A stretch of DNA of 64,000 nucleotides from an uncultured Dehalococcoidales bacterium (GCA_964586515.1 CAZPGJ010000004.1:85701-149700); one strand, 5' to 3'; shown: positions 4,676 through 17,387, counted from the stretch's first letter. Translations and numbers: made by a program. The notes: a model not told the origin generated them from the sequence alone.

Positions 4676-5581
4676 TTACAATCCATAGACTAACCTTGGT
4701 GCCAGGTATTGCGGGAATCTATCCAATAACGCCAGGCGAACAAGATAGCACATATGACAGGCATCAACATATTCATCCTCGTGTTGGACGTCATATTCTT
4801 TAACCAAACGGGCGGGCCCTCCGTTGACTAGAGGTCTACAGATTGGGTGCGAATCAGCATCGTACTGTTTTACTATCTTTGATAGCGGAACATCCCACAT
4901 ATTACCCATACTCAGCCCCTGACAAAGATGGATGTTGCCATATGCATCGAGATGCACCCTCTCGGGGTTTTTGAGGTCTTCGTAAGGACATTCTGTGAAT
5001 TCTTCCCATGGTCTCCGAGGAAGGCCTGCTATCAACTTCTCGACTGCTCTCCCTCTAAACATAACGCCACCGCCAATAACCGGTTTTCCTTTGGCCTGCT
5101 CCTTGTTAATACCCCCTTCCACCGTAGGCTTATCAATACAAATTGATTCACAGGACATACCTAACTTCCTCGCGGCATTTAAGGCATGTTTGGCAGGAGC
5201 TATTTCCTTGTCTTCATAATGAAATGCGTCATCGCTTATGCTTATGTCTGATACTCCTATATCATGAAGTGGCTTTAGCCAGAGTTCTACGTCCTCCGCT
5301 GATGTTGCCCAGTATGCGTTAGTTACTATTCCGGTTTTAAACCCCATACTACGGGCAATCCTGATGCCTTCATACATTAGAGGGTAAAATAAAAACGGTT
5401 CACCACCTTCAAAATATACCCATTCTATTGTTTCAATTTTGGCTAGTTCATTGAAGACTCTCTTCATCTGATCCAGTGTGAAGGTTCCCTTTGCCTGTGG
5501 GCTGCTATACACAAAACAATGGTCACATTCTAAATCGCATTTATAGCTCAAGAGAAAATGTATTCCAGTTACCATTCTCAC
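4676..5581 (-). CDS. radical SAM domain protein with extra C-terminal Cys cluster
   Basis: CDLECDHC (CxxxCxxC) near N-terminus, FEGGEP glycine-rich SAM motif, additional C-terminal cysteines (SPASM/twitch-like). Confidence 0.8.
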   Translation of the reverse strand: MRMVTGIHFLLSYKCDLECDHCFVYSSPQAKGTFTLDQMKRVFNELAKIETIEWVYFEGGEPFLFYPLMYEGIRIARSMGFKTGIVTNAYWATSAEDVELWLKPLHDIGVSDISISDDAFHYEDKEIAPAKHALNAARKLGMSCESICIDKPTVEGGINKEQAKGKPVIGGGVMFRGRAVEKLIAGLPRRPWEEFTECPYEDLKNPERVHLDAYGNIHLCQGLSMGNMWDVPLSKIVKQYDADSHPICRPLVNGGPARLVKEYDVQHEDEYVDACHMCYLVRLALLDRFPQYLAPRLVYGL

Positions 5582-5676
5582 TACTCCGATGAACTCAAAT
5601 ATATACTAAATTCACTTTTGCCTCTTGCCACCCGAGCCATTCGGTAGACCAGATTCCTCTTAGATTCACACCTATG

Positions 5677-6996
5677 TCACGTTTCGCCACATTCGAGCCT
5701 GTAGTCGCAGTAAGAGCACATCCACGAGGGGCATTTGGGAAGCAGCAGTGGCGATGTCGCCTTTTCCAAAAGCTCAAGCCGGCGTAATGCTTCAGCTTTA
5801 ACAGCATTCAAATTCCTGAAGTTTACATCGTAGACCATCAGCTTGGCATCTTCTTTGGGAACTCTAACATAGTAGAGCAACAGCCTGCCTTTTGTGTTCT
5901 CTGTCAAGGCACAGTCGAATCCCAGGCGGAGGAAGTAATGAGAGAATGTACTGGGCAAGCGTTCCCTTTCCACTAGTGAAGAAAATTTTGGGCCGCGCAG
6001 GATGGTGGGCAGGTTCTGCCAGATTTGGACCAGGTCGGCCAGTGGTGTATGCTTCACGGGAATCCTCTGCGCTTCGCCCGGGGCACCGTAGCGTAATGAA
6101 TCACGGAGTGCATCAATAAAGCCACGCTCATCCATGGAACGAAGATACTCTTCCTTCTCTTCCCGGACTCCTTCACTCAACTTAAGGCGCTCAAAATATG
6201 CTTTGCGGGGGAAGACAATATCGTTGATGCCAAACACTTGGGATGGTTGAGCCCCAGCCATTTTGCTGAGGAGTTGCTCGCAAGTTGTGCTATCGACATA
6301 AATTTCCCCGGCTAAATCAGCTATCTCATGCGATGCCGGCACTGACGTGGTTGCGCAGTCGCATACCTGCGAGTAATCACACTGCCTGTTGAACCAGGGG
6401 CAAACGGGAAGATTGCTGGGGTCGTTGGAAATTAGCGCTTGCACCAGGAGGTCTCGTCTCCGCCGCATTTCCTCTCGAATTGCTTCCAGGTCCGGGAAGG
6501 TAACGTGGTAGACAACCAGGGGAGACGGTGATTCCTCCGCGGGGCGCTGATAGATGATGATTTCTCCCTCGTGGACATTGACCATAGCACAGTACATACC
6601 CAATTGCTCGATATAAGTTGGCCTGTATTGCAATAAGTCCTTCGTGTCTATAGGTGTAGAGGTGGTCTTGACCTCTACGGGAATCTTTTCGTAGATATCA
6701 ATCTTGCCCACAATGCCCTCGGCTTCTACAAATTGCTCCAGGTATTCTTCGCTGGATACGGCTGAGCCGAAGGTCTTGTGAAAGCCGGTGCCGGCCCACA
6801 TAAGCTGCTGTTTCTCCAGAGGCGGAACGATTTCAGGATACTTTCTCCTGAAGTAAGCCTGTTTGAGGTTAAGCAAGTCGGTTACCGAGATGCGATAGGG
6901 AGGTCGGCGTGTCTTTAAGCTTTGCATTAAGGCATCCTTGACGGAGCGGTTCGCCTCAATGTGGGAAACATAAGATGCGATGTCAAAGTCACCCAT
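5677..6996 (-). CDS. tandem Cas4/RecB-like PD-(D/E)xK nuclease-domain protein with two C-terminal Cys4 clusters
   Basis: 439 aa; first half has GKIDIYEK...PVEVKTT (D..ExK) and ends LPVCPWFNRQCDYSQVCDC; second half ends LPKCPSWMCSYCDYRLEC, i.e. an internal duplication of a Cas4-like Fe-S nuclease module. Confidence 0.5.
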   Translation of the reverse strand: MGDFDIASYVSHIEANRSVKDALMQSLKTRRPPYRISVTDLLNLKQAYFRRKYPEIVPPLEKQQLMWAGTGFHKTFGSAVSSEEYLEQFVEAEGIVGKIDIYEKIPVEVKTTSTPIDTKDLLQYRPTYIEQLGMYCAMVNVHEGEIIIYQRPAEESPSPLVVYHVTFPDLEAIREEMRRRRDLLVQALISNDPSNLPVCPWFNRQCDYSQVCDCATTSVPASHEIADLAGEIYVDSTTCEQLLSKMAGAQPSQVFGINDIVFPRKAYFERLKLSEGVREEKEEYLRSMDERGFIDALRDSLRYGAPGEAQRIPVKHTPLADLVQIWQNLPTILRGPKFSSLVERERLPSTFSHYFLRLGFDCALTENTKGRLLLYYVRVPKEDAKLMVYDVNFRNLNAVKAEALRRLELLEKATSPLLLPKCPSWMCSYCDYRLECGET

Positions 6997-7119
6997 TGTT
7001 GTACCTTATTATTGTATCTTGTCGCAAAAATAACTTCATTATGTCACTGCGAGCTAAAGTCCCTTTCCTTGATTGGTAGAGGGGAAAAAGCTCGCCAACT
7101 CCTGTCCCTGAACCCCCCT

Positions 7120-7215
7120 GTCATTGCGAGGCCCGATTTATCGGGCCGAAGCAATCTCCTCTCCCTTGACGGGAGAGGATTAAGGTGAGGGTGATAGGCG
7201 AAGCAATCTCAATTC
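7120..7215. repeat. palindromic intergenic repeat of the GTCATTGCGAG/GAAGCAATCTC family with two hairpins
   Basis: gtcattgcgagg, cccgatttatcggg hairpin, cgaagcaatctc twice, cctctccc/gggagagg hairpin. Confidence 0.7.
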
Positions 7216-8299
7216 ACCTCCACGCCCTCAGTCGCCTGAAGGCTTCGAGTTTCTCCTTATCTCCGATTTTGGCTTTCTCCACCGCCTGGGCCAGAAACTG
7301 GATGCTGCTATCGTAGGTCTTCCTGTCCACAGGATAAGGATAGCCGTCTTTGCCGCCATGGGCAAAACTGTAGCTGGCCGGGTCGCGCAGGCTAACAGGA
7401 GTATCGTAGACCAGCTCTGAAATAAGACTCAGGGCGCGGAGCGTTTTAGGTCCTATACCCTCCAGGGCTAGCAGTGATTCAAAGTTCTGCGGCTTATGTT
7501 CATAAGCTGTGAGGAAAATCTTGCCCAGCCGGTCGGGGTGAATATCTTCCAGGCTGATATAAGATCGCTGGGGCAAGTTCAAGGTCTTCAGCCTCTTTAG
7601 CTGACCGACAATTTTATTTGGCTTGTCTTCGGCAGCAACCTGGGCAATGACCTCCCTCACCTTTGCGCTCTCTAAAGCCACCAGATTTAATGCTTCGCCC
7701 CTGGCCTGGGAGCAGATAGCCGCCTCGGGCTCGCAAACAAAATCGCTGACTTTCTCCCCCAGCCAGTGATAGCGCCGCGCATAGCGGTTAACCTCGTTCA
7801 TACCTTGCTGAATGACTGCCCAGGAGCCGTCTCTGGTGAAGAAGAAACTGTGGTGGTAGAGCTGGTAGCCGTCCTGAAGTGCGGAATTATCCACCTTGGC
7901 CGACATCCGGCTGGCATAGACCAGAGACGACGGATTGACCTTCAGCAGGTGCCCGCTGTTTTCTATCTCGGCAGGAGTTTTCCGTGAAGTCCTGCCCTTG
8001 CCACCGGCCACGAACAAGCCCAGCTCTCTTTCCAGTCCTCTCATTCCTTCTTTTATGGCGCCGCACACGGTAGTGGTAACGCCGCTGGAATGCCAGTCAT
8101 AGCCCAGGACACAGCCGAAAGCCTGGAACCAGAAAGGGTCGGAGAGGCGGTGCAGCATCTCCCCGGTGCCAAACTCCGTTACCGTAACAACGGTAATCTC
8201 CCGGGCAAGCTGGGACATCCGCCCGAACAACCACGGCGGCACCTTACCGTAATGCAAGGGTAAATTGGCGATCCCTGTCCTCTGTCCCGAGCTAGGCAT
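7214..8299 (-). CDS. DUF763-like protein with helix-hairpin-helix motif
   Basis: 361 aa; GIGPKTLRAL HhH-like motif; recollection of the DUF763 family, not verifiable without a search. Confidence 0.4.
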   Translation of the reverse strand: MPSSGQRTGIANLPLHYGKVPPWLFGRMSQLAREITVVTVTEFGTGEMLHRLSDPFWFQAFGCVLGYDWHSSGVTTTVCGAIKEGMRGLERELGLFVAGGKGRTSRKTPAEIENSGHLLKVNPSSLVYASRMSAKVDNSALQDGYQLYHHSFFFTRDGSWAVIQQGMNEVNRYARRYHWLGEKVSDFVCEPEAAICSQARGEALNLVALESAKVREVIAQVAAEDKPNKIVGQLKRLKTLNLPQRSYISLEDIHPDRLGKIFLTAYEHKPQNFESLLALEGIGPKTLRALSLISELVYDTPVSLRDPASYSFAHGGKDGYPYPVDRKTYDSSIQFLAQAVEKAKIGDKEKLEAFRRLRAWR

Positions 8300-8466
8300 C
8301 TCCTGCTCTAGGTATATTATACAACAGCGTTTGTCCCAATAGCAGCGGTCTTTTGATATTGAAGGCTGTGCGCATTAGTCGTCGTATGGACTGCTGACCC
8401 AAAAACGAATTTCGTATATACTAAGTTATATGAAATGGCGGTTTTTCAAAAACGGGGTAATTCATA

Positions 8467-11067
8467 ATGACCTTGCATAGCATACTAAAATCGAAAGTTG
8501 CGGAATGGAGAGACTCAAATTATAAAACAGAGTATCCGGTCATTTCCGAAATTCTCAACTTTAACTACGATTCCGAGACTCAAACCTTACGTTTCTTACG
8601 AAAAGCTCAATTTGAAGCCCTTGAAACTTACTGGTACTTAAGACTTATTGAAAAAACTCCGCATATTTTTGATTTATATAAAAGCCTCTTTCTACCAGAA
8701 GCCCTTTTAGATACTTTGGGTATTAAACTAACTGATGAAGATTGGAAAAAAGTCGCTATTTCTGGAGGTGGGATAGACTCAATATTTGAAAAGATAAGAA
8801 ATGACGATAACTTTGTAAGGAAATATAGACTGGAAGCTCTTAGGGAGACACTTATCTTAAGCTACCCAAGTTATATCCTGGCCTTGGCAATGGGAGCTGG
8901 CAAAACTATTTTGATTGGCACAATTATCGCTACTGAATTTGCAATGGCTCTTGAATATCCCGAGGATAACTTTCTTAAAAATGCCCTGGTATTCGCACCA
9001 GGTAAGACCATCTTAGGAGCATTAAAAGAGTTATCGGATGTCCCCTATGAAAATATATTACCTAAAAGATTTCATAAACAATTCATAACCACTGTAAAAT
9101 TTACCTATACTCGTGATGGCGAAAAAGACATTCCGATAATCAAAGGCTCAAGTTTTAATATCGTAGTAACCAATACCGAAAAGATTAGGATACAAAAACA
9201 ATCTATAACCAAATCTTTAATTAGAGATTTATTTGTTGACCCATCCAGAGAAGATGAGGTGAAGGAGGCGATAGCCAATCAGAGACTGCAAACAATTGCC
9301 TCACTTCCAAATCTTGCTATCTTTTCTGATGAAGCACACCATACCTATGGACTGGCACTCGGTGAAGAACTGAAGAGAGTGAGACAGACAGTTAATTATT
9401 TGTCAGAAAAAACAAATGTTTTAGTTGTGGTAAACACTACTGGGACCCCATATTATAAAAGGCAAATCCTTAAAGATGTTATTTATTGGTATGGTCTATC
9501 ACAAGGAATAAAAGATGGAATATTGAAAGAAGTCCGAGGCAATATTGTATCCTATCCCGAAGTAACCGATAGAGATTTCCTAAAAGATATTATTGCCGAT
9601 TTCTTCAAGAATTATAAAGATATAAAAATCTATGATGGCAGTCCTTCTAAACTGGCGATATATTTTCCCCAAATAGAGGATTTAAAGAATGCCAAACCAG
9701 TTGTTGAGAAAAACTTAATAGAACTCGGCTTAGACCCTTCTGTTATTTTAGAGGTGCATAATGAGTCAAAAGAAGCGGTTAAGGATTTGTTTGATAACCG
9801 AATAAATGACCCCCACCTACCTTATCGTATGTTTCTTCTTGTTAACAAAGGGACTGAGGGATGGAACTGCTTATCCCTTTTTTCTACCGCCTTAGCAAGA
9901 AAACTGACAGCAAGTAATAACTTTTGCCTTCAAGCCGCTTCCCGCTGCCTCAGGCAAACCCCTGGCAATATACACAAGGCAAAAATATACCTTTCCAAAG
10001 AAAATGTCGGAATTCTGGATGCCCAACTTAAAGAAACCTACGGCGAATCTCTCGAAGATTTAAATAGAACTCCACAGGATATGAGAAAGGATAGATTAAT
10101 TTTAAGAAAAGTAGAAATACCACCTGTCTCACTCAAAAAGAAGATTCAAAAAGTCCTGCCCAAAGAATTGCTGTTAGATATTAATGAAATAGCGTTTAAG
10201 AAGATTGAGGGAGAAAAAGAGAAGTTTAGAAAGACCATTCATAGCCTTGATGAAATTCCTCAGAGGAAGGGAGTCTTAATTTTTGTAAGAGAAGAGGAGA
10301 TAGAAATTATTGAAGATTTTGTGGATAGTTATACCTTTGCTGTGGAACTATCAAGTCTTTACCGCCTACCCCTTATGTTGATATATGACAAATTAAAAGA
10401 GTTGTATCCTCAAGGCGAAATCCCTGAAAGTGAGGCGATTGAACTTAAAGGGCAAATAGAAGAGAAGGTAAGAAACTACGAGGTAAAAGAGGAAGAGGTA
10501 GAAGTTGCTCTGGCTCTTATAAGACCTGAAGGTTTCAATAAGGAAGAAAAAGACGGCAAGAGCATATATGTAACCGAGATAGTCTATCATAAAGACAAGC
10601 AGAAATACCTATTAAAGTGGGAGGAGTTTAAGACTAAATTCAAGAGAGACTTCGGCTTCCACTATAATCCCTATAAATTTGATTCTTCTCCTGAGAAGGA
10701 TTTTTTTACTGGGCTACTTGGGATTTTGAACGAAGACCCGGCAGATATTGAAGACATCTATTATACCGGTGGCATGGATGACCCAAGCAAGACGGAATTT
10801 CTCTTTGAGTATAGAGGCAAGGATGGCAGGTATCATAACTATTCCCCTGATTTTCTGATAAGAAGGAAAAATGGAAAAGTGATAATCGTGGAGGTAAAAG
10901 CGGAACGCTTCAAAGAGGAAGAGAAGGAAAAGGAGATGAGAAGGATTGAAGGACTAAATCCTGATAGATTGAAGTATGAAATTCTAGAGACCAAAGGGGA
11001 ACAACTAACTTTTGAGAATTGGGGTAAAGTTAGAGAAGCGATATATGCGTACGGAAAGAAAAAATGA
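8467..11067 (+). CDS. res: Type III restriction enzyme Res-like subunit (SF2 helicase + C-terminal PD-(D/E)xK endonuclease)
   Basis: 866 aa; Walker A LAMGAGKT, DEAH box (FSDEAHH), TGTP, QAASRCLRQ motif VI; C-terminal YSPDFLI...VIIVEVKAERF nuclease motif; AT-rich codon usage. Confidence 0.75.
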   Translation: MTLHSILKSKVAEWRDSNYKTEYPVISEILNFNYDSETQTLRFLRKAQFEALETYWYLRLIEKTPHIFDLYKSLFLPEALLDTLGIKLTDEDWKKVAISGGGIDSIFEKIRNDDNFVRKYRLEALRETLILSYPSYILALAMGAGKTILIGTIIATEFAMALEYPEDNFLKNALVFAPGKTILGALKELSDVPYENILPKRFHKQFITTVKFTYTRDGEKDIPIIKGSSFNIVVTNTEKIRIQKQSITKSLIRDLFVDPSREDEVKEAIANQRLQTIASLPNLAIFSDEAHHTYGLALGEELKRVRQTVNYLSEKTNVLVVVNTTGTPYYKRQILKDVIYWYGLSQGIKDGILKEVRGNIVSYPEVTDRDFLKDIIADFFKNYKDIKIYDGSPSKLAIYFPQIEDLKNAKPVVEKNLIELGLDPSVILEVHNESKEAVKDLFDNRINDPHLPYRMFLLVNKGTEGWNCLSLFSTALARKLTASNNFCLQAASRCLRQTPGNIHKAKIYLSKENVGILDAQLKETYGESLEDLNRTPQDMRKDRLILRKVEIPPVSLKKKIQKVLPKELLLDINEIAFKKIEGEKEKFRKTIHSLDEIPQRKGVLIFVREEEIEIIEDFVDSYTFAVELSSLYRLPLMLIYDKLKELYPQGEIPESEAIELKGQIEEKVRNYEVKEEEVEVALALIRPEGFNKEEKDGKSIYVTEIVYHKDKQKYLLKWEEFKTKFKRDFGFHYNPYKFDSSPEKDFFTGLLGILNEDPADIEDIYYTGGMDDPSKTEFLFEYRGKDGRYHNYSPDFLIRRKNGKVIIVEVKAERFKEEEKEKEMRRIEGLNPDRLKYEILETKGEQLTFENWGKVREAIYAYGKKK

Positions 11068-11074
11068 AGATTAA

Positions 11075-12733
11075 ATGAAGATTAAAGGAATCACTCTGCA
11101 TAACTTTAGATCAATTAAGGAGCAAATATTTAACCTTAATGACTATTCCTTATTAATAGGAGCAAACAATTCAGGAAAAACAAATATAATTGACGCTTTG
11201 AGGATTTTCTACGAGAAAGAAAAATCCGATAAAGAAGACTTCCCTAAACTTGAGACTGGTGACCAGGAAAGCTGGATTGAAATCGAGTTCCATCTAACTG
11301 ATGATGAATTAGCAAATTTGAGAGATGACTATAAACAACCTAATAATACGCTGCAAGCAAGAAAGTATTTGAAGTCTTCACAACCAAACAGAGTAAAGTC
11401 TAATCAAAGTAACATTTATGGGTATGAAGGAGGTAATCTTTCAAACAATCTTTTCTATGGTGCTAAAAACATTTCAGAGGCAAAGTTAGGGGATGTGGTT
11501 TATATTCCGGAAGTCGCTAAGGTAGATGAATATACCAAATTGAGCGGTCCCTCTGCTTTTAGAGATTCCCTAAATTTTGTGGTAAAGAAAGTTGTAAAGA
11601 ACAGCCCATCTTTTGAATCTTTGAGTGAATCATTCACAGATTTCAATGAGAAATTTAGAACCGAGGTTTCTAAAGACGGTACTTCAATACAAAATTTCAT
11701 TGATGATGTTAATAAAGAAATTAAAGACTGGGATGTATCTTTTGGTGTAGAAATTAATCAGATTAAACCAGAGGAAATAATAAAGAATTTAGTAAGTCAT
11801 TATTTGGAAGATAAAAATTTAGAGGATCAAAAATTAGATGCAAGTTCTTTTGGACAGGGACTTCAAAGGCATCTAATCTATACTCTGATAAAGTTATCTG
11901 CTAAGTACAAGGATATTCCAATAAAGAAAGAAAGAAAAGAGTTCGCCCCTGATTTCACCCTAATTCTTTTTGAAGAACCTGAGGCATTTCTACATCCTGC
12001 CCAACAAGAGATTTTAAATTTGAGCCTAAGAGAACTTTCATCGGGAAATACTCAACAAGTTTTAATTTCTACGCACTCTCCGCTTTTTGTGAGTAAAAAT
12101 GTAGAAGATATCCCATCTATTTTGAAACTTACGAAAGATAAGGCTGAAACAATAATTCACCAAATAGACAAGGATAGTTTACAAGAAATTTTAAAAGAGA
12201 ATAAGAAGTTAAAAGAGATTTTGGGGGACGAAATAACCGATAAAGATATGGAGGAAGAATCTATTCGCTACTCATTATGGCTAGATTCTGAAAGATGTTC
12301 AGCTTTTTTTGCTGATACTGTCCTTATATGTGAAGGAGCTACTGAAAAAACTTTGATAGACTATCTAGTAAAGAACAATAGAATAAACCTTCAGAATAAG
12401 CAAGCCTACATCCTAGATGCAATGGGAAAGTATAACATCCATAGATATATGAATTTATTTAGTAATCTTGGTATTAAACATTCAATTTTGTTTGATGGCG
12501 GTAACGACAAAGACAGGAATAAAAAGATAAATGAGTTTATAGAAAGCAATAAAAATAAATATACTTTAAAGTTACACTCATTTGAGGGTGAATTAGAGGA
12601 CTTTTTAGAAATTGATAAGGTAAATGATAGATACAAAAAACCTTTAAATGTAATGTGGCATTACAAGAAAAACAAAATAAAACAAGAAAAAATTGATGGA
12701 TTGATGAAGATAATCGAAGACTTAATGGAGTAG
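11075..12733 (+). CDS. OLD-family ATP-dependent endonuclease (ABC-type ATPase + TOPRIM), PARIS/Old-like
   Basis: 552 aa; Walker A GANNSGKTN, Walker B LILFEEPEAFLHP, H-loop LISTHSP; C-terminal TOPRIM VLICEGATEKTLIDYL ... LFDGGNDKD; 7 bp after res stop and 14 bp before mod start. Confidence 0.8.
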   Translation: MKIKGITLHNFRSIKEQIFNLNDYSLLIGANNSGKTNIIDALRIFYEKEKSDKEDFPKLETGDQESWIEIEFHLTDDELANLRDDYKQPNNTLQARKYLKSSQPNRVKSNQSNIYGYEGGNLSNNLFYGAKNISEAKLGDVVYIPEVAKVDEYTKLSGPSAFRDSLNFVVKKVVKNSPSFESLSESFTDFNEKFRTEVSKDGTSIQNFIDDVNKEIKDWDVSFGVEINQIKPEEIIKNLVSHYLEDKNLEDQKLDASSFGQGLQRHLIYTLIKLSAKYKDIPIKKERKEFAPDFTLILFEEPEAFLHPAQQEILNLSLRELSSGNTQQVLISTHSPLFVSKNVEDIPSILKLTKDKAETIIHQIDKDSLQEILKENKKLKEILGDEITDKDMEEESIRYSLWLDSERCSAFFADTVLICEGATEKTLIDYLVKNNRINLQNKQAYILDAMGKYNIHRYMNLFSNLGIKHSILFDGGNDKDRNKKINEFIESNKNKYTLKLHSFEGELEDFLEIDKVNDRYKKPLNVMWHYKKNKIKQEKIDGLMKIIEDLME

Positions 12734-12747
12734 GAAAAGGTTGAATT

Positions 12748-14568
12748 ATGAAAGAAGAGAATAAAATTAAGATAACGCCAGCTAAAGGACGCCCAATGCT
12801 TCACTGGGTAGGTAAAAAGCCTTTGGATTATATCAAAGGCTTTCCTGCTCAGTTGGTAGAAGTCTTTGACCCGTTGAATAGTGGGCAAAGAATTGAAACG
12901 CCAACTTATGATGAATTAAAGGATAACTGGCAAAATCTACTCTTTCACGGAGACAATAAAGATGTTTTAGCCACGCTTCTGGAATTAGGATTTAGAGGGA
13001 AGATTGATTTGATTTATATCGACCCGCCATTTATGAGTGGGGCGGACTATGTAAGAAAGGTTCAGTTGAGAGGAATGAAGAAGCCGGAGACCCTAGAAGT
13101 TGATGAGGTATCGCTACTTCAACAAGTTATGTACGAGGACATATGGAACAACGATAGTTACCTACAGTTCATGTATGAGAGACTAATGCTAATGAAAGAA
13201 CTTCTATCTGAAGCAGGAAGTATCTACATTCATTTAGATTGGCATGTTGGACATTACGTGAAATTAGTTATGGACGAGATTTTTGGACGGGAGAATTTCA
13301 GGAATGAAATTGTGTGGAATAAGGGCTTTAGAGGCACAGAATCAAAAAACATTTACCAGCATGCTCATGATGTCATTTTTTGGTATTCCAAAGGCGAAGG
13401 CTACATTTGGAATCAGGTAGGACAACCATACAGAGATGAAGATTTAAAGCGTTACAACAAGGTGGATGAATATGGGAAAAGATACGCATTGATAAAAAGA
13501 AGGAAAACCGATGGCACAATTTATTATGGGAAGACTTATCCCAAAGAAGAGGGCAAAAGAATTGACGATGTTATAAGTCATGTAGCGATCATGGCATCTA
13601 CCGCTACAGAGCGTACAGGCTTCGAGACCCAGAAACCTACCGATTTATTGGAGATTTTCATCGCTACCTCTTGTCGCTCTAATAGCCTTGTCCTTGATTG
13701 CTTCATCGGCTCAGGAACTTCTGCTAGTGTTGCCCAAAAACTTGGCAGGCGATGGATTGGTTGCGATATAAATAAAGGCGCAATCCAGATGACAAGCAAA
13801 ATAGTGCAAAAGATAATCCTTGAACAGGTCAAGAAAGGAGAGACAAAATATCCTACATTTGCTATTTACAAGGTCAATGATTATGATTTGCAACTTTTAA
13901 AAACCGAGGCAATTGAACTTGCCGTCCAGCATATTGGTATTCAAAGGATAAGAACTGATACATTTTTTGATGGATACCTAGGGAAAAACTTAGTAAAAAT
14001 TATTGACTTCAATCATCCATTAACACTTTTAGATTTACAACTCCTTCAGGACGAATTAAAGAAAAGACCAGATGAAGATAGAGATATAACCATCGTCTGT
14101 CTTGGTAAGGAATTAGCCATTGACCCTTGGATTGATGAGTGGAATAAGAAACATCCGGTAAATAAGATTAAGGTAATTGAGTTAAAGACAGATAAAAAAT
14201 ACGGCAGTTTCTTAATCCACAAACCAGCGGAGGCAAAGATAGAGATTCTTCGCTCTGCTCAGAATGACAGAGTGGCAGTAGTAACTATACAGGATTTCAT
14301 CTCTCCAACGATAATTGAGCGTCTTAACATTGATAATAAACTCTTCAAAGTAAAAATCCCTGATTTTAGATGTATGATTGATACAGTTTTGATTGACAAT
14401 AATTACGATGGCAAAACCTTCCATATTGTCTATTCAGATGTCCCAGAAAGAAAAGATGACTTAGTCAAAGGAAAATATGAAATCAAAATTCCAAAGTCAA
14501 AAACAAAAGTCGCAGCAAAAATCATTGACATGCTTGGAGAAGAGGTTATAAATGTCTTTGAGGCATAA
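12748..14568 (+). CDS. mod: beta-class N6-adenine/N4-cytosine DNA methyltransferase (Type III Mod-like)
   Basis: 606 aa; motif IV LIYIDPPF precedes motif I FIGSGTSA (beta-class order); about 220 aa putative TRD between them; long C-terminal extension. Confidence 0.8.
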   Translation: MKEENKIKITPAKGRPMLHWVGKKPLDYIKGFPAQLVEVFDPLNSGQRIETPTYDELKDNWQNLLFHGDNKDVLATLLELGFRGKIDLIYIDPPFMSGADYVRKVQLRGMKKPETLEVDEVSLLQQVMYEDIWNNDSYLQFMYERLMLMKELLSEAGSIYIHLDWHVGHYVKLVMDEIFGRENFRNEIVWNKGFRGTESKNIYQHAHDVIFWYSKGEGYIWNQVGQPYRDEDLKRYNKVDEYGKRYALIKRRKTDGTIYYGKTYPKEEGKRIDDVISHVAIMASTATERTGFETQKPTDLLEIFIATSCRSNSLVLDCFIGSGTSASVAQKLGRRWIGCDINKGAIQMTSKIVQKIILEQVKKGETKYPTFAIYKVNDYDLQLLKTEAIELAVQHIGIQRIRTDTFFDGYLGKNLVKIIDFNHPLTLLDLQLLQDELKKRPDEDRDITIVCLGKELAIDPWIDEWNKKHPVNKIKVIELKTDKKYGSFLIHKPAEAKIEILRSAQNDRVAVVTIQDFISPTIIERLNIDNKLFKVKIPDFRCMIDTVLIDNNYDGKTFHIVYSDVPERKDDLVKGKYEIKIPKSKTKVAAKIIDMLGEEVINVFEA

Positions 14569-14649
14569 AAGTGAAAAAACGACCCACTTCATGTAACATA
14601 GCATAAAGGCTCGCTCTCGCTCATCCAAATTTTTGCTTCGCAAAAACTT

Positions 14650-14835
14650 CCTTTAACTGTTGCGACACGTGAGATTGATGGGCTGGTTTAATGGGACCTG
14701 TCTTGAAGAATTTGTGGAAGCAATGAAATGAGGATGGGCGCTCGTGATGCTTATAGACGGTGGGGCGAAGTCGGGGAGCGGGACAATAGTTCGCTATTCT
14801 ATCGCGCTGGCCAGCCTGCTGGGCAAGGGAATAAA
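14650..14835 (+). pseudogene. degenerate duplicate of hicB 3' end + hicA 3' end + rtcA 5' end (33 codons then stop)
   Basis: Near-identical DNA to 15182-15225 and 15415-15545; the rtcA-like fragment encodes VMLIDGGAKSGSGTIVRYSIALASLLGKGINS*. Confidence 0.7.
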
Positions 14836-15016
14836 CTCGTAGTTGGCATTCGAATTTCAGCAATGATAGAATTCATAAGCTGGGGAGCTAAAGGGGAGGA
14901 ATATAAGGAGTTTCTAGAAGGTATACACGGCCTGGCAATTATTGCTGAACGTCGAGATCAGCCTACTATAGCCTTTGAGGAACTCAAAAAGAAGAGAAGG
15001 CAGGAGGGAATGAGCT

Positions 15017-15223
15017 ATGAAGTTCATCATAACAATTGAACAGGATGAAGATGGCGTATTCGTTGTCGAATGTCCAAGTATTCCAGGGTGCGTAAGTCAA
15101 GGTAAAACGGAGCAAGAAGCCTTAGAAAATATTGAAGATGCTATTAAGCAGTGTTTGGAGGTACGAGCAGAGAAAGGAATGCCTTTAACTGTTATGACAC
15201 GTGAGATTGAGATTCTGGTTTAA
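15017..15223 (+). CDS. hicB: HicB-family antitoxin
   Basis: 68 aa UPF0150/HicB-like (FVVECPSIPGCVSQGKTEQEALENIEDAI); immediately upstream of hicA with overlapping stop/start. Confidence 0.7.
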   Translation: MKFIITIEQDEDGVFVVECPSIPGCVSQGKTEQEALENIEDAIKQCLEVRAEKGMPLTVMTREIEILV

Positions 15224-15444
15224 TGAAACTCCCTCTTCTCAGTGGACGTGAGGTAACGAAGATTTTTGGAAGGCTGGGCTGGGAGATAGCGCGCCAGAAA
15301 GGGAGTCACATTATTTTGGTAAAAGAGGGTCACATTGCAACATTGTCTATTCCTGATCACAAAGAGGTTGCGAGAGGAACGTTAAGGAAACTAATCACCC
15401 GTGCTGGTATAACCGTCGAAGAGTTTGTGGAAGCAATGAAATGA
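15223..15444 (+). CDS. hicA: HicA-family mRNA interferase toxin
   Basis: 73 aa; SGREVTKIFGRLGWEIARQKGSHIIL matches the HicA/YcfA signature. Confidence 0.8.
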   Translation: MKLPLLSGREVTKIFGRLGWEIARQKGSHIILVKEGHIATLSIPDHKEVARGTLRKLITRAGITVEEFVEAMK

Positions 15445-15456
15445 GGGTGGGCGCTC

Positions 15457-16491
15457 GTGATGCTTATAGATGGTGGGGCGAAGTCGGGGAGCGGGACAAT
15501 AGTCCGTTATTCAATGGCGCTGGCCAGCCTGCTGGGTAGGGAAATAAGGATAGAGAACATCAGGGCTGGGAGGGATAAGCCAGGGCTGAGGGCACAGCAT
15601 CTCAAAGTAGTGCAAGCGTGCCAGGAGATGTGCCACGCGGTGGTGCAAAACGCTGCGGTGGGCTCTAATGAGATTACCTACACACCCGGAGAAAGGTTCA
15701 ACGGAGGAGAGTATAGCTGGGACATAGGGACGGCGGGCTCAACCACCATGATGGCCCAGACGCTTTTGCCTCTCGCGTGCTTTGCCCGAAAGCCCTCCAA
15801 ATTCAGGCTGGAAGGTGGGCTGTTTCAGGATTTTGCCCCCTCTGCTTATCACACGAAGTTTGTTCTGCTTCCGCTTCTAAAGCAGATGGGTGTCCGGGCT
15901 GAACTTGACATAATTCGCCCCGGCTATGTGCCCAGAGGCGGTGGAATTATAGAAGTTAGAGTCGAGCCGGCCGGGAAACTGAAGCCACTAAATCTTACTG
16001 AGCAGGGGGAGATTTTCAATATCAAGGGCATAGCGCTTTCCTCGCGTTTGAAAGAAAAGAGAGTAAGTCAGAGGATGGCTGAGGAATGCCAGAGGGTATT
16101 AAGCTCTTATGGGTATAAAGCGGAAATTGAGGAAATCGAAGACGAAAGCTCCCTCCAAGAAGGAGCAGCCCTGGCGATATATGGCGAGACGAGCCTGGGT
16201 AACCGGATAGGTTCCGACAGGGCCGGGAGGCCAGGCAGAAGCTCGGAATCCATAGGAAGATATGTGGCGGAGAGGTTTATAGAGGATGTTAAAATTGGCG
16301 CCGCAGTTGATAGATATATCGCAGACCAGCTCATAATCTATGCTGGCTTAGCCGAGGGGGTCACCAGGTATTCAGTCCCGCGCATTACTGAACATGTGGA
16401 GACAAACCTATGGCTTATCGAGGAATTTCTGGGTGCCAGAACAAAAATTAGTGGCAATCTCCTGGAGATAGAGGGGATTGGCTTTGCCTGA
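15457..16491 (+). CDS. rtcA: RNA 3'-terminal phosphate cyclase
   Basis: 344 aa; N-terminal IDGGAKSGSGTIVRYSMALASLLG and overall RtcA architecture. Confidence 0.85.
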   Translation: MMLIDGGAKSGSGTIVRYSMALASLLGREIRIENIRAGRDKPGLRAQHLKVVQACQEMCHAVVQNAAVGSNEITYTPGERFNGGEYSWDIGTAGSTTMMAQTLLPLACFARKPSKFRLEGGLFQDFAPSAYHTKFVLLPLLKQMGVRAELDIIRPGYVPRGGGIIEVRVEPAGKLKPLNLTEQGEIFNIKGIALSSRLKEKRVSQRMAEECQRVLSSYGYKAEIEEIEDESSLQEGAALAIYGETSLGNRIGSDRAGRPGRSSESIGRYVAERFIEDVKIGAAVDRYIADQLIIYAGLAEGVTRYSVPRITEHVETNLWLIEEFLGARTKISGNLLEIEGIGFA

Positions 16492-16559
16492 AGGCTATCC
16501 GTGATGGATTTGGCAAAAAAGCTGAATTTTGTCACAATAACAGTGATTTCGGGTAAATA

Positions 16560-17387
16560 ATGGAGGACTTAATCAAGCGAGCGGCCAAGGATTTGGCGGA
16601 AAGCAAACATGCCATTGCCTTAACCGGGGCCGGCATATCCACTGAATCGGGCATAGCTGATTTCAGGGGGCCAAAGGGCATCTGGACCACGAATAAAGAG
16701 GCTGAGGCTAAGGCTTATGAAAGATATGAGCTTTTCCTGAATGCCCCCAGGACATACTGGGAGGAAATGGTGGGGTTGCGGGGGACATACGGTACGTTTC
16801 ACGGACAAATCAGGGAGGCTCAGCCAAATCCCGGTCACTATGCTCTGGCTGAGCTCGAAGCTCTGGGGATACTGAAGTGCGTGATTACGCAAAACATTGA
16901 TGGCCTACATAAAAAGGCGGGGAATAAGCGGGTGTTGGAATATCACGGCAGTGTCAATGCGCTGAGGTGTATTTCTTGCGGCTCAAGGTTTGCCTGGGAG
17001 GAAGTCTCCCTGGACGAGCTTCCGCCTCGCTGCAAGTGCGGCGCTGTCCTGAAGGACGATGTGGTCCACTTCAAGGAGCCAATACCTTCAGACGTCATGG
17101 AGGAGTCGGAAAAAGAAGCTTTGAGTTGTGACTTGATGCTTATCTGCGGAACATCAGCAGTGGTCTATCCTTTTGCCAATCTGCCCAGGATGGCGAGATT
17201 TCATTCGGGTGTCACGGGCTTGGATGTAATGAAGCATAAAGCTAATGTGAAGATAATAGAGGTGAATGCGGACCCTACGCCGCTCACCCAGGAAGGCATA
17301 TCAGACTATTTAATTCAGGGAAGGACAGGCGAGATATTGCCCCGGCTAGTGGAAGAGGTAAGGAAAGCACAAAAGCATCAGAGCTAG
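16560..17387 (+). CDS. cobB: NAD-dependent protein deacylase, Sir2 family
   Basis: GAGISTESGIADFRG, ITQNIDGLH, Zn Cys pairs CISCG / CKCG. Confidence 0.85.
   Translation: MEDLIKRAAKDLAESKHAIALTGAGISTESGIADFRGPKGIWTTNKEAEAKAYERYELFLNAPRTYWEEMVGLRGTYGTFHGQIREAQPNPGHYALAELEALGILKCVITQNIDGLHKKAGNKRVLEYHGSVNALRCISCGSRFAWEEVSLDELPPRCKCGAVLKDDVVHFKEPIPSDVMEESEKEALSCDLMLICGTSAVVYPFANLPRMARFHSGVTGLDVMKHKANVKIIEVNADPTPLTQEGISDYLIQGRTGEILPRLVEEVRKAQKHQS

Follow-up and report, generated by a model that had tools for sequence, protein, structure and literature searches.

Class 1 OLD nucleases are described in reviews as single genes that do not lie near other defense genes (PMC10568477), and the old locus of phage P2 is itself one of the P2/P4 hotspots of gene turnover (Rousset et al. 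2022, PMC9122126). Defense genes embedded in larger systems have been surveyed for Hma, BREX, DISARM, and restriction-modification (RM) systems of Type I; they were found in 62.7% of the Hma systems, and 96.7% of them were co-oriented (Payne, Hughes, Fineran & Jackson 2024, bioRxiv 10.1101/2024.01.29.577857). The classical case of such embedding is PrrC in EcoprrI, the paradigm of restriction combined with a latent suicide back-up. PARIS and Gabija, which contain OLD-type chemistry, can both be triggered by the anti-restriction protein Ocr. Here we describe a res-OLD-mod gene trio at positions 8467 to 14568 of a 64,000-nucleotide stretch of DNA (hereafter, the window) from an uncultured Dehalococcoidales bacterium (GCA_964586515.1 CAZPGJ010000004.1:85701-149700). 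In our judgment the trio is likely to be an autonomous res-mod module with exchangeable defense cassettes in the slot between its two genes, a slot here occupied by a Class-1-type OLD nuclease, which would be co-expressed with the module and serve independently of it as a second layer of defense.

The trio consists of three co-directional open reading frames (ORFs), all on the + strand (coordinates are those of the whole window): a res-like gene of 866 aa (8467..11067), an OLD nuclease gene of 552 aa (11075..12733), and a mod gene of 606 aa (12748..14568). They are separated by 7 bp and then by 14 bp, exactly as given in the initial annotation, which had read them as a single coupled system of restriction and abortive infection. 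We regard res and mod as genes of a host system and as the upstream and downstream neighbors of a cargo slot, and OLD, which was assigned from its motifs, profile matches, and homology to P2 Old, as the embedded cargo.

The pairing of Res and Mod was determined in 80 metagenome loci, 71 of which were long enough to be judged. A Mod homologue followed the Res homologue on the same strand in 71 of 71 evaluable loci; in this Res family, the gene order is as a rule res first and mod second. The two genes were adjacent in 32 of the 71 (with a gap of -17 to 146 bp), while in 39 (55%) they were split by 0.7 to 2.6 kb, that is, by one to three genes, all of them co-oriented. The junctions were tight in every locus, the stop and start codons either overlapping or lying a few nucleotides apart, with a ribosome-binding site. 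The same slot layout was kept in Res clades only 40 to 52% identical to that of the window, among them L170 and L173, each with five small genes in the slot, and L171, with an adjacent Res-Mod pair (52% clade) on an element with a serine recombinase. No conserved third gene turned up outside the res-mod pair, the 178 flank proteins falling into 149 clusters, the largest of which had three members.

The cargo of the slot was highly diverse and comprised at least 20 unrelated clusters. Those annotated with Pfam or PADLOC included ThsB-TIR plus SLATT, DUF6978 plus DUF1828/1829 (PDC-M24A/B), a YhcG/DUF1016 PD-ExK nuclease, a 792-aa AAA_13 ATPase (PDC-S06), PDC-S32, a radical-SAM protein (PDC-M30A-like), DUF3800, a nucleotidyltransferase, Fic/DOC, and an NYN RNase. 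The commonest cassette, K1+K0 (approximately 426 plus 349 aa), occupied eight loci (L098:3034-5368, L091, L101, L104, L105, L120, L122, and L145), and three further unannotated cassettes consisted of a single gene each (K8, L083:5004-6056; K9, L088:2887-3600; K13, L128:8611-9618). Neither K1+K0 nor K8, K9, or K13 had a match in Pfam, PADLOC, NCBIfam, or the PDB. By its embedding, the K1+K0 pair is a candidate new defense system. Three OLD lineages were found as cargo, namely, the clade of the window OLD, that of L085, and that of L107, where an OLD-like match (27% identity) lay 3' of res on a contig that stops before mod. Homologues of the 552-aa window protein sat between res and mod in L086 and L089 as well, and two of its closest relatives, P0006 (80%) and P0037 (74%), lay in Res-OLD-Mod trios like that of the window, which is the recurrence that the initial annotation had proposed to look for. 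Altogether, at least four further loci have the trio, with OLD identities as low as 74%.

Two of the more distant Res clades had features of their own. In L171 (6813-13512), the gene of a 63-aa HTH_3 protein that looks like a controller protein precedes and overlaps res, and the element encodes a RepB-like primase together with a large serine recombinase, a hint at the way in which the module moves. In L170 (9799-15599; 40% Res clade), the slot genes include a ParE-like toxin, and mod is split by an insertion sequence element; the system seems to be decaying in this copy.

We then compared the slot between closely related loci. Pairs at 85 to 95% Res identity had the same slot state in 38% of the cases, and pairs with both slots filled had cargo in common in 11 of 33. 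The four closest evaluable Res relatives (86 to 92%) carried four non-homologous cassettes (K7+K8, a distant OLD, K3+K4+K2, and K9); the partial locus L086 (Res, 91%) carried the same OLD as the window. Slot turnover is, on this comparison, fast. The replacement could be followed in place at L085 (JREQ01000882.1, 6646-16488), whose flanks on the DUF763 and rtcA sides show approximately 80% nucleotide identity to those of the window; because these chromosomal flanks are common to both, L085 is orthologous to the window locus and belongs to a related genome. Its res and mod are 91 and 87% identical to those of the window at the nucleotide level, with the same target-recognition segment in mod, while its slot holds an OLD of another lineage (572 aa, 28% identity) encoded by DNA that is non-homologous to the window cassette. 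The homology between the two loci stops approximately 20 nt short of the stop codon of res and restarts approximately 10 nt inside mod. It breaks at the same two points in L083 and L087, and it runs unbroken across res-OLD-mod in L086, L089, and L163. A search of the slot for a recombinase, repeats, or att-like sites found none. A transposon or integron-like mechanism was rejected, the slot being without recombinase and without repeats. Recombination in the conserved 3' end of res and 5' end of mod would be the simplest mechanism of cassette exchange.

These comparisons bear directly on the possibility that the OLD ATPase is a working part of the RM system that loads or activates Mod or Res, as the ATPases of MANTIS/Gao_RL or HmaC do. 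There are published precedents of ATPases needed for methylation or restriction (MANTIS and Hma), and the presence of the trio in at least four further loci, in which OLD identity falls as low as 74%, would agree with such a role. It is contradicted, however, by the slots that are empty, 32 of the 71 pairs having no intervening gene and the rest carrying unrelated cargo, and by the replacement of the cassette at L085, where res and mod stay approximately 90% identical; there is, moreover, no conserved third gene around the pair, and PADLOC gave no Hma or Gao_RL matches. We consider an integral role of OLD very unlikely, and the tripartite system proposed in the initial annotation is not supported by the same observations. 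We read the locus, from these comparisons, as an RM module with a swappable passenger and not as a dedicated three-part system.

The OLD protein carries the motifs GANNSGKT29 (Walker A, G29-T36), Walker B EEPE300, H-loop STHS332, CEG419, and DGGND474-478. It matched the profiles AAA_15 at 1e-31, OLD-like_TOPRIM at 7e-17, and the PADLOC model Old at 1.4e-59 (residues 1-499), could be aligned with Old of phage P2 (coverage, 86%; identity, 25%; E, 3e-15), and matched GajA and Thermus scotoductus (Ts) OLD in the PDB. Judged by these matches, it is unambiguously a member of the OLD family, a Class-1-type nuclease with an ATP-binding cassette (ABC) ATPase and a TOPRIM domain, and the architecture first assigned to it from its motifs was borne out. 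The description of the module as PARIS-like was not: the AriA and GajA models scored 1e-31 to 1e-33, far under the Old model, those of AriA covered the ATPase half alone (1.2e-31 versus 1.4e-59 for Old), and there was no DUF4435 match. The dN/dS ratio of OLD was 0.08 to 0.12 (versus L089 and L163), a value indicative of strong purifying selection. Its dS versus L163 was 0.86 while those of res and mod were saturated, which suggests a more recent sharing of the cargo than of its res and mod flanks.

To see where else such proteins occur, we collected relatives of the window OLD. The clade gave 1853 matches at an E of <1e-20, with relatives at 60 to 89% identity spanning Nanoarchaeota, Actinomycetota, and Ignavibacteriota, that is, both bacteria and archaea; by this distribution it is large and mobile across phyla. 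Operon neighbors were clustered for 80 loci from species-representative genomes. A gene-1 homologue lay beside OLD in none of these 80 (0/80), and no partner gene was conserved across them. In many of the 80 loci, OLD turned out to be inside other restriction operons, co-oriented and with gaps of 0 to 15 bp. It was found in canonical Type III operons in the order Mod-OLD-Res (L008, L009, L017, L019, L023, and L024; Res matching ResIII at 2e-23), in Type III operons in the order Res-OLD-Mod (L016 and L079; Res with ResIII plus RE_endonuc and matching the EcoP15I Res 4zcf_C at 2e-77), or OLD-Mod-Res (L050), in a Type I operon as HsdS-OLD-HsdR (L020), and in a Type IIG-like operon as RadC-OLD-(HSDR_N_2 plus N6_Mtase plus Eco57I) (L004 and L005). 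Two relatives at 78% identity, P0012 and P0016, lay in RadC-OLD-Type IIG-like operons, and further neighbors were nSTAND3/Mrr, AIPR, and DUF2130. OLD also occurred alone, in L003 (81%) between nitroreductase and biotin carboxylase genes and in L007 (68%) between those of pseudouridine synthase and glutamyl-tRNA synthetase (GluRS). From these contexts, the clade is autonomous, living alone between housekeeping genes as well as in Type I, Type IIG-like, and canonical Type III operons.

Some of these neighborhoods deserve a separate mention. The RadC(JAB)-OLD-Type IIG-like operon recurs in L004, L005, L165:3406-8325, and L166:4914-9566, with OLDs 76 to 78% identical to that of the window, and RadC is also found 5' of Mod-OLD-Res in L009, L017, and L024. 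A DUF2130 protein of approximately 430 aa is encoded directly downstream of OLD homologues in L013:11449-12729, L026, and L040:11774-13060 and, in one case (L168:7469-8776), downstream of a Res-OLD-Mod trio. The protein could be a partner associated with OLD.

The mobility of the clade across phyla, at 60 to 89% identity, would be in keeping with a chance or selfish insertion in which a mobile OLD landed between res and mod without benefit, and so would the minor drift seen in the window copy (DGG in place of DGD and a duplication at the junction). Such an origin is refuted by the recurrence of the trio and by the purifying selection on OLD. OLD recurs also in other RM operons, it is integrated exactly at stop and start codons, with no transposase, no integrase, and no repeats, and the slot is filled by defense-type genes in 55% of the loci. 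Two independent systems brought together by chance, the outcome that the initial annotation had named as fatal to its proposal, would be very unlikely here. A promoter and terminator scan predicted no + strand terminator between the genes; its promoter-like sites (25 versus 18.8 +/- 4.1 after shuffling) showed no excess, and the scan is therefore uninformative.

A refined version of the coupling proposed in the initial annotation would make OLD a guardian of RM systems in general, idle while the RM complex works and firing when an anti-restriction protein (a DNA mimic, for instance Ocr or ArdA) blocks restriction or when the RecBCD-type degradation of restricted DNA is inhibited, with back-up abortive infection as the outcome, as for PrrC in EcoprrI or for PARIS. 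An RM gene lay within 3.5 kb of OLD in 7 of 10 loci (70%) at >=60% identity, in 13 of 36 at 50 to 60%, and in 4 of 26 at 40 to 50%, while the control zone at 5 to 10 kb contained one in 1 of 54; these counts are lower bounds because the set of RM queries was small. The association is thus a local one, and it is strongest among the nearest relatives of the window OLD. The embedding of OLD in three mechanistically different RM types (III, I, and IIG-like), co-oriented and with gaps of 0 to 15 bp, and the uptake of three OLD lineages into one slot likewise speak for a guardian, and precedents exist in the pairings of PrrC with Stp, of PARIS and Gabija with Ocr, and of P2 Old with the inhibition of RecBCD. 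The partners, however, are not conserved: at approximately 78% identity the same OLD accompanies unrelated RM proteins, and a specific protein-protein lock is therefore unlikely. Close relatives live alone between housekeeping genes, the slot holds at least 20 other types of cargo and is thus not selective for OLD, and PrrC is near-exclusively RM-embedded whereas the window OLD clade is not. A guardian would have to be partner-agnostic, given that the same OLD is found with unrelated RM proteins as well as on its own. Taken together, we consider a guardian role unlikely. An extended form of it, which we rate as equally doubtful, would make the OLD clade a partner-agnostic guardian that senses a generic result of blocked restriction (a DNA mimic, or unprocessed breaks under RecBCD inhibition) and the res/mod slot an exchange hotspot whose unannotated cassettes (K1+K0, K8, K9, and K13) are new anti-phage systems; a guardian of this kind would explain the repeated capture of OLD in Type I, Type IIG-like, canonical Type III, and Type III-like operons.

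The interpretation of OLD as an independent, co-expressed passenger of an autonomous res-mod module has its own weak points, which we gather here. The enrichment of RM genes beside the OLD clade hints at more than neutral hitch-hiking, and so does the entry of OLD into the slot from three separate lineages (the window clade, L085, and L107). The 80 loci of each search were the best-matching ones and not a random sample, and the genes of the fetched loci were called by a longest-ORF rule. Co-transcription of res, OLD, and mod is deduced from their spacing and may be regarded as probable on that basis. The window copy itself could be altered in two respects. At its res/OLD junction there is an 11-nt tandem duplication (11064..11085, + strand; ATGAAGATTAA x2), which gives rise to a 4-codon mini-ORF (MKIK*) in the interval from the res stop to the OLD start. 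The mini-ORF is overlapped by the TGA stop of res and ends in a stop codon that overlaps the true OLD ATG (11075), while the other Res-OLD-Mod trios (L086, L089, L163, and L168) have a plain ATGA overlap that places the res stop on the OLD ATG. Lying at the OLD start, the duplication could alter the activity of this copy. In the TOPRIM domain, E420, G421, and D474 are kept and the second Asp of the DxD motif is replaced by G476 (12494-12502, D474-G-G476). DGG is common to the window OLD and its closest relative, the 89%-identical P0002, only; P0003 has DGE, and D-x-D is kept in every other relative, those of the remaining trios included. The loss of this Asp could mean an attenuated nuclease activity of the window copy. 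In BpOLD the second Asp touches metal A via water, and the single D457A mutant kept its activity (PMC6755086); because of this retained activity, the DGG of the window OLD is a flag and not a proof of inactivation.

Of the two host proteins, Mod was the easier to place. Its motifs are in the order DPPF92 and then FIGSG319, which defines the beta class, and it matched N6_N4_Mtase at 1.8e-44 and the PADLOC profile MTase_III at 2.5e-68; its best relative in the PDB was EcoP15I Mod (4zcf_A, 1.3e-22). Among 52 Mod homologues, column conservation was 0.23 to 0.52 in aa 181-300 and 0.8 to 0.9 elsewhere. This hypervariable segment (aa ~181-300; 13288..13647, + strand), at which the DNA homology of mod to L083, L087, and L163 also breaks, sits between motif IV (DPPF) and motif I (FxGxG), where the target-recognition domains of Type III enzymes lie, and we take it to be the putative target-recognition domain. 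A hypervariable segment of this kind is typical of a real RM system.

Res contains the motifs GAGKT143, DEAH288, TGTP325, QAASRCLR489, and PD794...EVK809-811, arranged as a helical N-terminal domain, a superfamily 2 (SF2) DEAH translocase core, and a C-terminal PD-(D/E)xK nuclease (PD794, E809, and K811). The Pfam profile ResIII matched it at 1.4e-6, over the gathering cut-off but weakly, and a TnsA-like PD-(D/E)xK match at its C terminus was sub-threshold; across the family, ResIII was matched by 35 of 42 members and the TnsA-like PD-ExK domain by 22 of 42. The helicase and nuclease residues (GAGKT, DEAH, TGTP, QxxxRxxR, PD794, E809, and K811) are invariant or near-invariant throughout the family, and in the AlphaFold2 model two RecA lobes can be seen, along with a C-terminal alpha/beta domain (an earlier model, built from a 19-sequence alignment with a pLDDT of 42, was discarded). 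Searches of PDB sequences with gene 1 and with family profiles, including one of 42 sequences, found no match. A profile-profile comparison with genuine EcoP15I-type Res gave a probability of 92.6%, confined to RecA2 (the second RecA-like helicase domain); this diverse profile superseded hhalign runs with shallow profiles, which had given 0.4% and 7%. On this evidence, Res appears to be a remote relative of EcoP15I Res, Type III-like by its architecture and not a demonstrated member of the EcoP1I/EcoP15I family. The assignment of the locus to a Type III-like RM system is supported for Mod by homology to EcoP15I and for Res by architecture; the order is res-mod and not the canonical mod-res.

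The Res family (approximately 870 aa) is large and well conserved, with 2949 matches, 69 to 92% identity among the best 120, and 305 clusters at 50% identity (E, <1e-30). One close Res homologue is labelled Dehalococcoidia, which, together with cluster names, makes Chloroflexota the probable phylum of the host. Searches of phages, plasmids, and viral contigs yielded three viral contigs with the Res family and only distant OLD relatives (22 to 43%), so they lend no support to a phage-borne module. A literature search on BPTD_3080 found nothing relevant.

We propose that res and mod form an autonomous, mobile two-gene RM module of Type III-like architecture, in which Mod would hold the target-recognition domain and Res would combine an SF2 translocase driven by ATP with a nuclease of the PD-(D/E)xK type at its C terminus. 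The interval from the res stop to the mod start would serve as an exchange slot that cassettes of one to three defense genes enter and leave, the likeliest route being homologous recombination in the 3' end of res and the 5' end of mod. With stop and start codons that overlap or lie close together, the cassettes would be expressed within the operon. OLD, whose chemistry and likely mode of action are borrowed from P2 Old, Ts OLD, and Vibrio cholerae (Vc) OLD, would most likely act as an ATP-regulated DNA nickase or exonuclease that hits replicating phage DNA or causes abortive infection, by analogy with P2 Old and Vc OLD. Co-inherited and co-expressed with restriction, it would provide an independent second layer of defense. 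The embedding would presumably benefit the cargo through co-transfer, co-regulation, and protection from deletion, the last because the loss of mod beside an intact res would be lethal.

The trio stands out from its surroundings by composition, its GC content being 0.32 to 0.40 compared with approximately 0.47 to 0.53 in both flanks. From the homology to L085 and from composition, the low-GC RM island extends over 8412..14655 (no strand assigned), and it is horizontally acquired. A search for tRNA genes and inverted repeats at its boundaries found none. At the right edge, positions 14650..14842 (+ strand) contain a 3' remnant of hicB (14650-14693) and a duplicated rtcA 5' region (14705-14842), of which 130 nt (14705-14834) are 92% identical to 15418-15547. 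This region looks like a recombination scar, from which a 103-aa ORF (14728-15039) probably results as an artefact. Intact hicB (15017-15223) and hicA (15223-15444) follow downstream of the scar, and next comes an equally intact rtcA, encoding the RNA 3'-phosphate cyclase RtcA (15457-16491). A Sir2-family gene lies 68 bp past rtcA (15457-17387 for the two), and no RtcB or RtcR was noticed near them. Directly upstream of the island, on the - strand, are genes of a radical-SAM protein (4676-5581), a PD-(D/E)xK/Cas4-like nuclease (5677-6996), and a DUF763 protein with a helix-hairpin-helix (HhH) motif (7214-8299); this host-like-GC segment (4676-8299) may be a separate DNA-processing or defense module.

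The arrangement is non-random, and its interest lies mainly in the slot as a handle for discovery and in the affinity of the OLD clade for RM genes. If confirmed, it would extend the principle of embedded defense genes to two-gene Type III-like RM modules, and a sharply bounded slot that is filled in more than half of the loci would become a computational handle for new defense genes. An OLD clade lodged preferentially in RM operons would contradict the textbook picture of isolated Class 1 genes, and the question of what triggers Class 1 OLD would become testable against anti-restriction and RecBCD-inhibitor proteins. It would also bring to light a large uncharacterized Res family with an HsdR-like motor, a C-terminal nuclease, and a res-first order, paired with an EcoP15I-like Mod.

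Four known systems were tried as identities of the locus and rejected. For Gabija, there is no adjoining UvrD-like gene and the GajA models score under Old; for PARIS, Old outscores AriA and DUF4435 has no match; for Hma, there is no conserved ATPase and no Hma PADLOC match; and for MADS, the MAD3 NCBIfam model gave 54 bits against a cut-off of 420. PARIS (AriA/AriB) and Gabija (GajA/GajB) share the ABC ATPase plus TOPRIM chemistry with the window OLD but, unlike them, the window has neither a separate AriB/DUF4435 gene nor a GajB helicase. The host pair resembles the EcoP1I/EcoP15I Type III systems in having two genes, a beta-class Mod with an internal variable target-recognition domain, and no S subunit, and its Res resembles Type III Res in the succession of an SF2 motor and a C-terminal PD-(D/E)xK nuclease; it differs in the order, which is res-mod and not mod-res. 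The cargo is closest to the Class 1 OLDs (P2 Old, Thermus scotoductus OLD 6P74, and Vc OLD): it can be aligned to P2 Old and, like them, lacks a UvrD-like, reverse transcriptase, or separate TOPRIM partner, its neighbors being res and mod only. In contrast to the published description of Class 1, however, this clade is often found inside RM operons, and the window copy has DGG in place of DxD.

PrrC in the EcoprrI Type IC locus, like the RloC/rlo genes in Type I loci, is likewise an ABC-ATPase-based effector lying between RM genes, and the genomic embedding of the window OLD is of this type. PrrC, however, is physically masked by EcoprrI, whereas the window OLD clade, lacking a near-exclusive association with RM, also occurs alone and with unrelated partners; moreover, PrrC is an anticodon nuclease, while the window effector is predicted to be a TOPRIM DNase. 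The P2/P4 hotspots show a similarly fast turnover of cassettes between two conserved flanking genes, but here the flanking genes are a defense system on a small chromosomal island and not genes of a phage or satellite. In organization the locus also resembles the systems of the embedded-gene survey. We found no description of embedded genes in Type III or Type III-like res-mod pairs in the open-access literature, which is weak evidence. As in that survey, the guests are nested between host genes in the same orientation, their content varies between homologous hosts, and many of them are known defense genes that are found also outside the host; the occupancy is 55% here and 62.7% in Hma, and several cargo families of the slot are those of the survey (PDC-S32, PDC-M24A/B, PDC-M30A, and PDC-S06). 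What sets the present locus apart is its host, a two-gene Type III-like res-mod pair, which the survey did not analyze, and its single precise slot, reaching from the res stop to the mod start, with a Class-1-type OLD as the guest.

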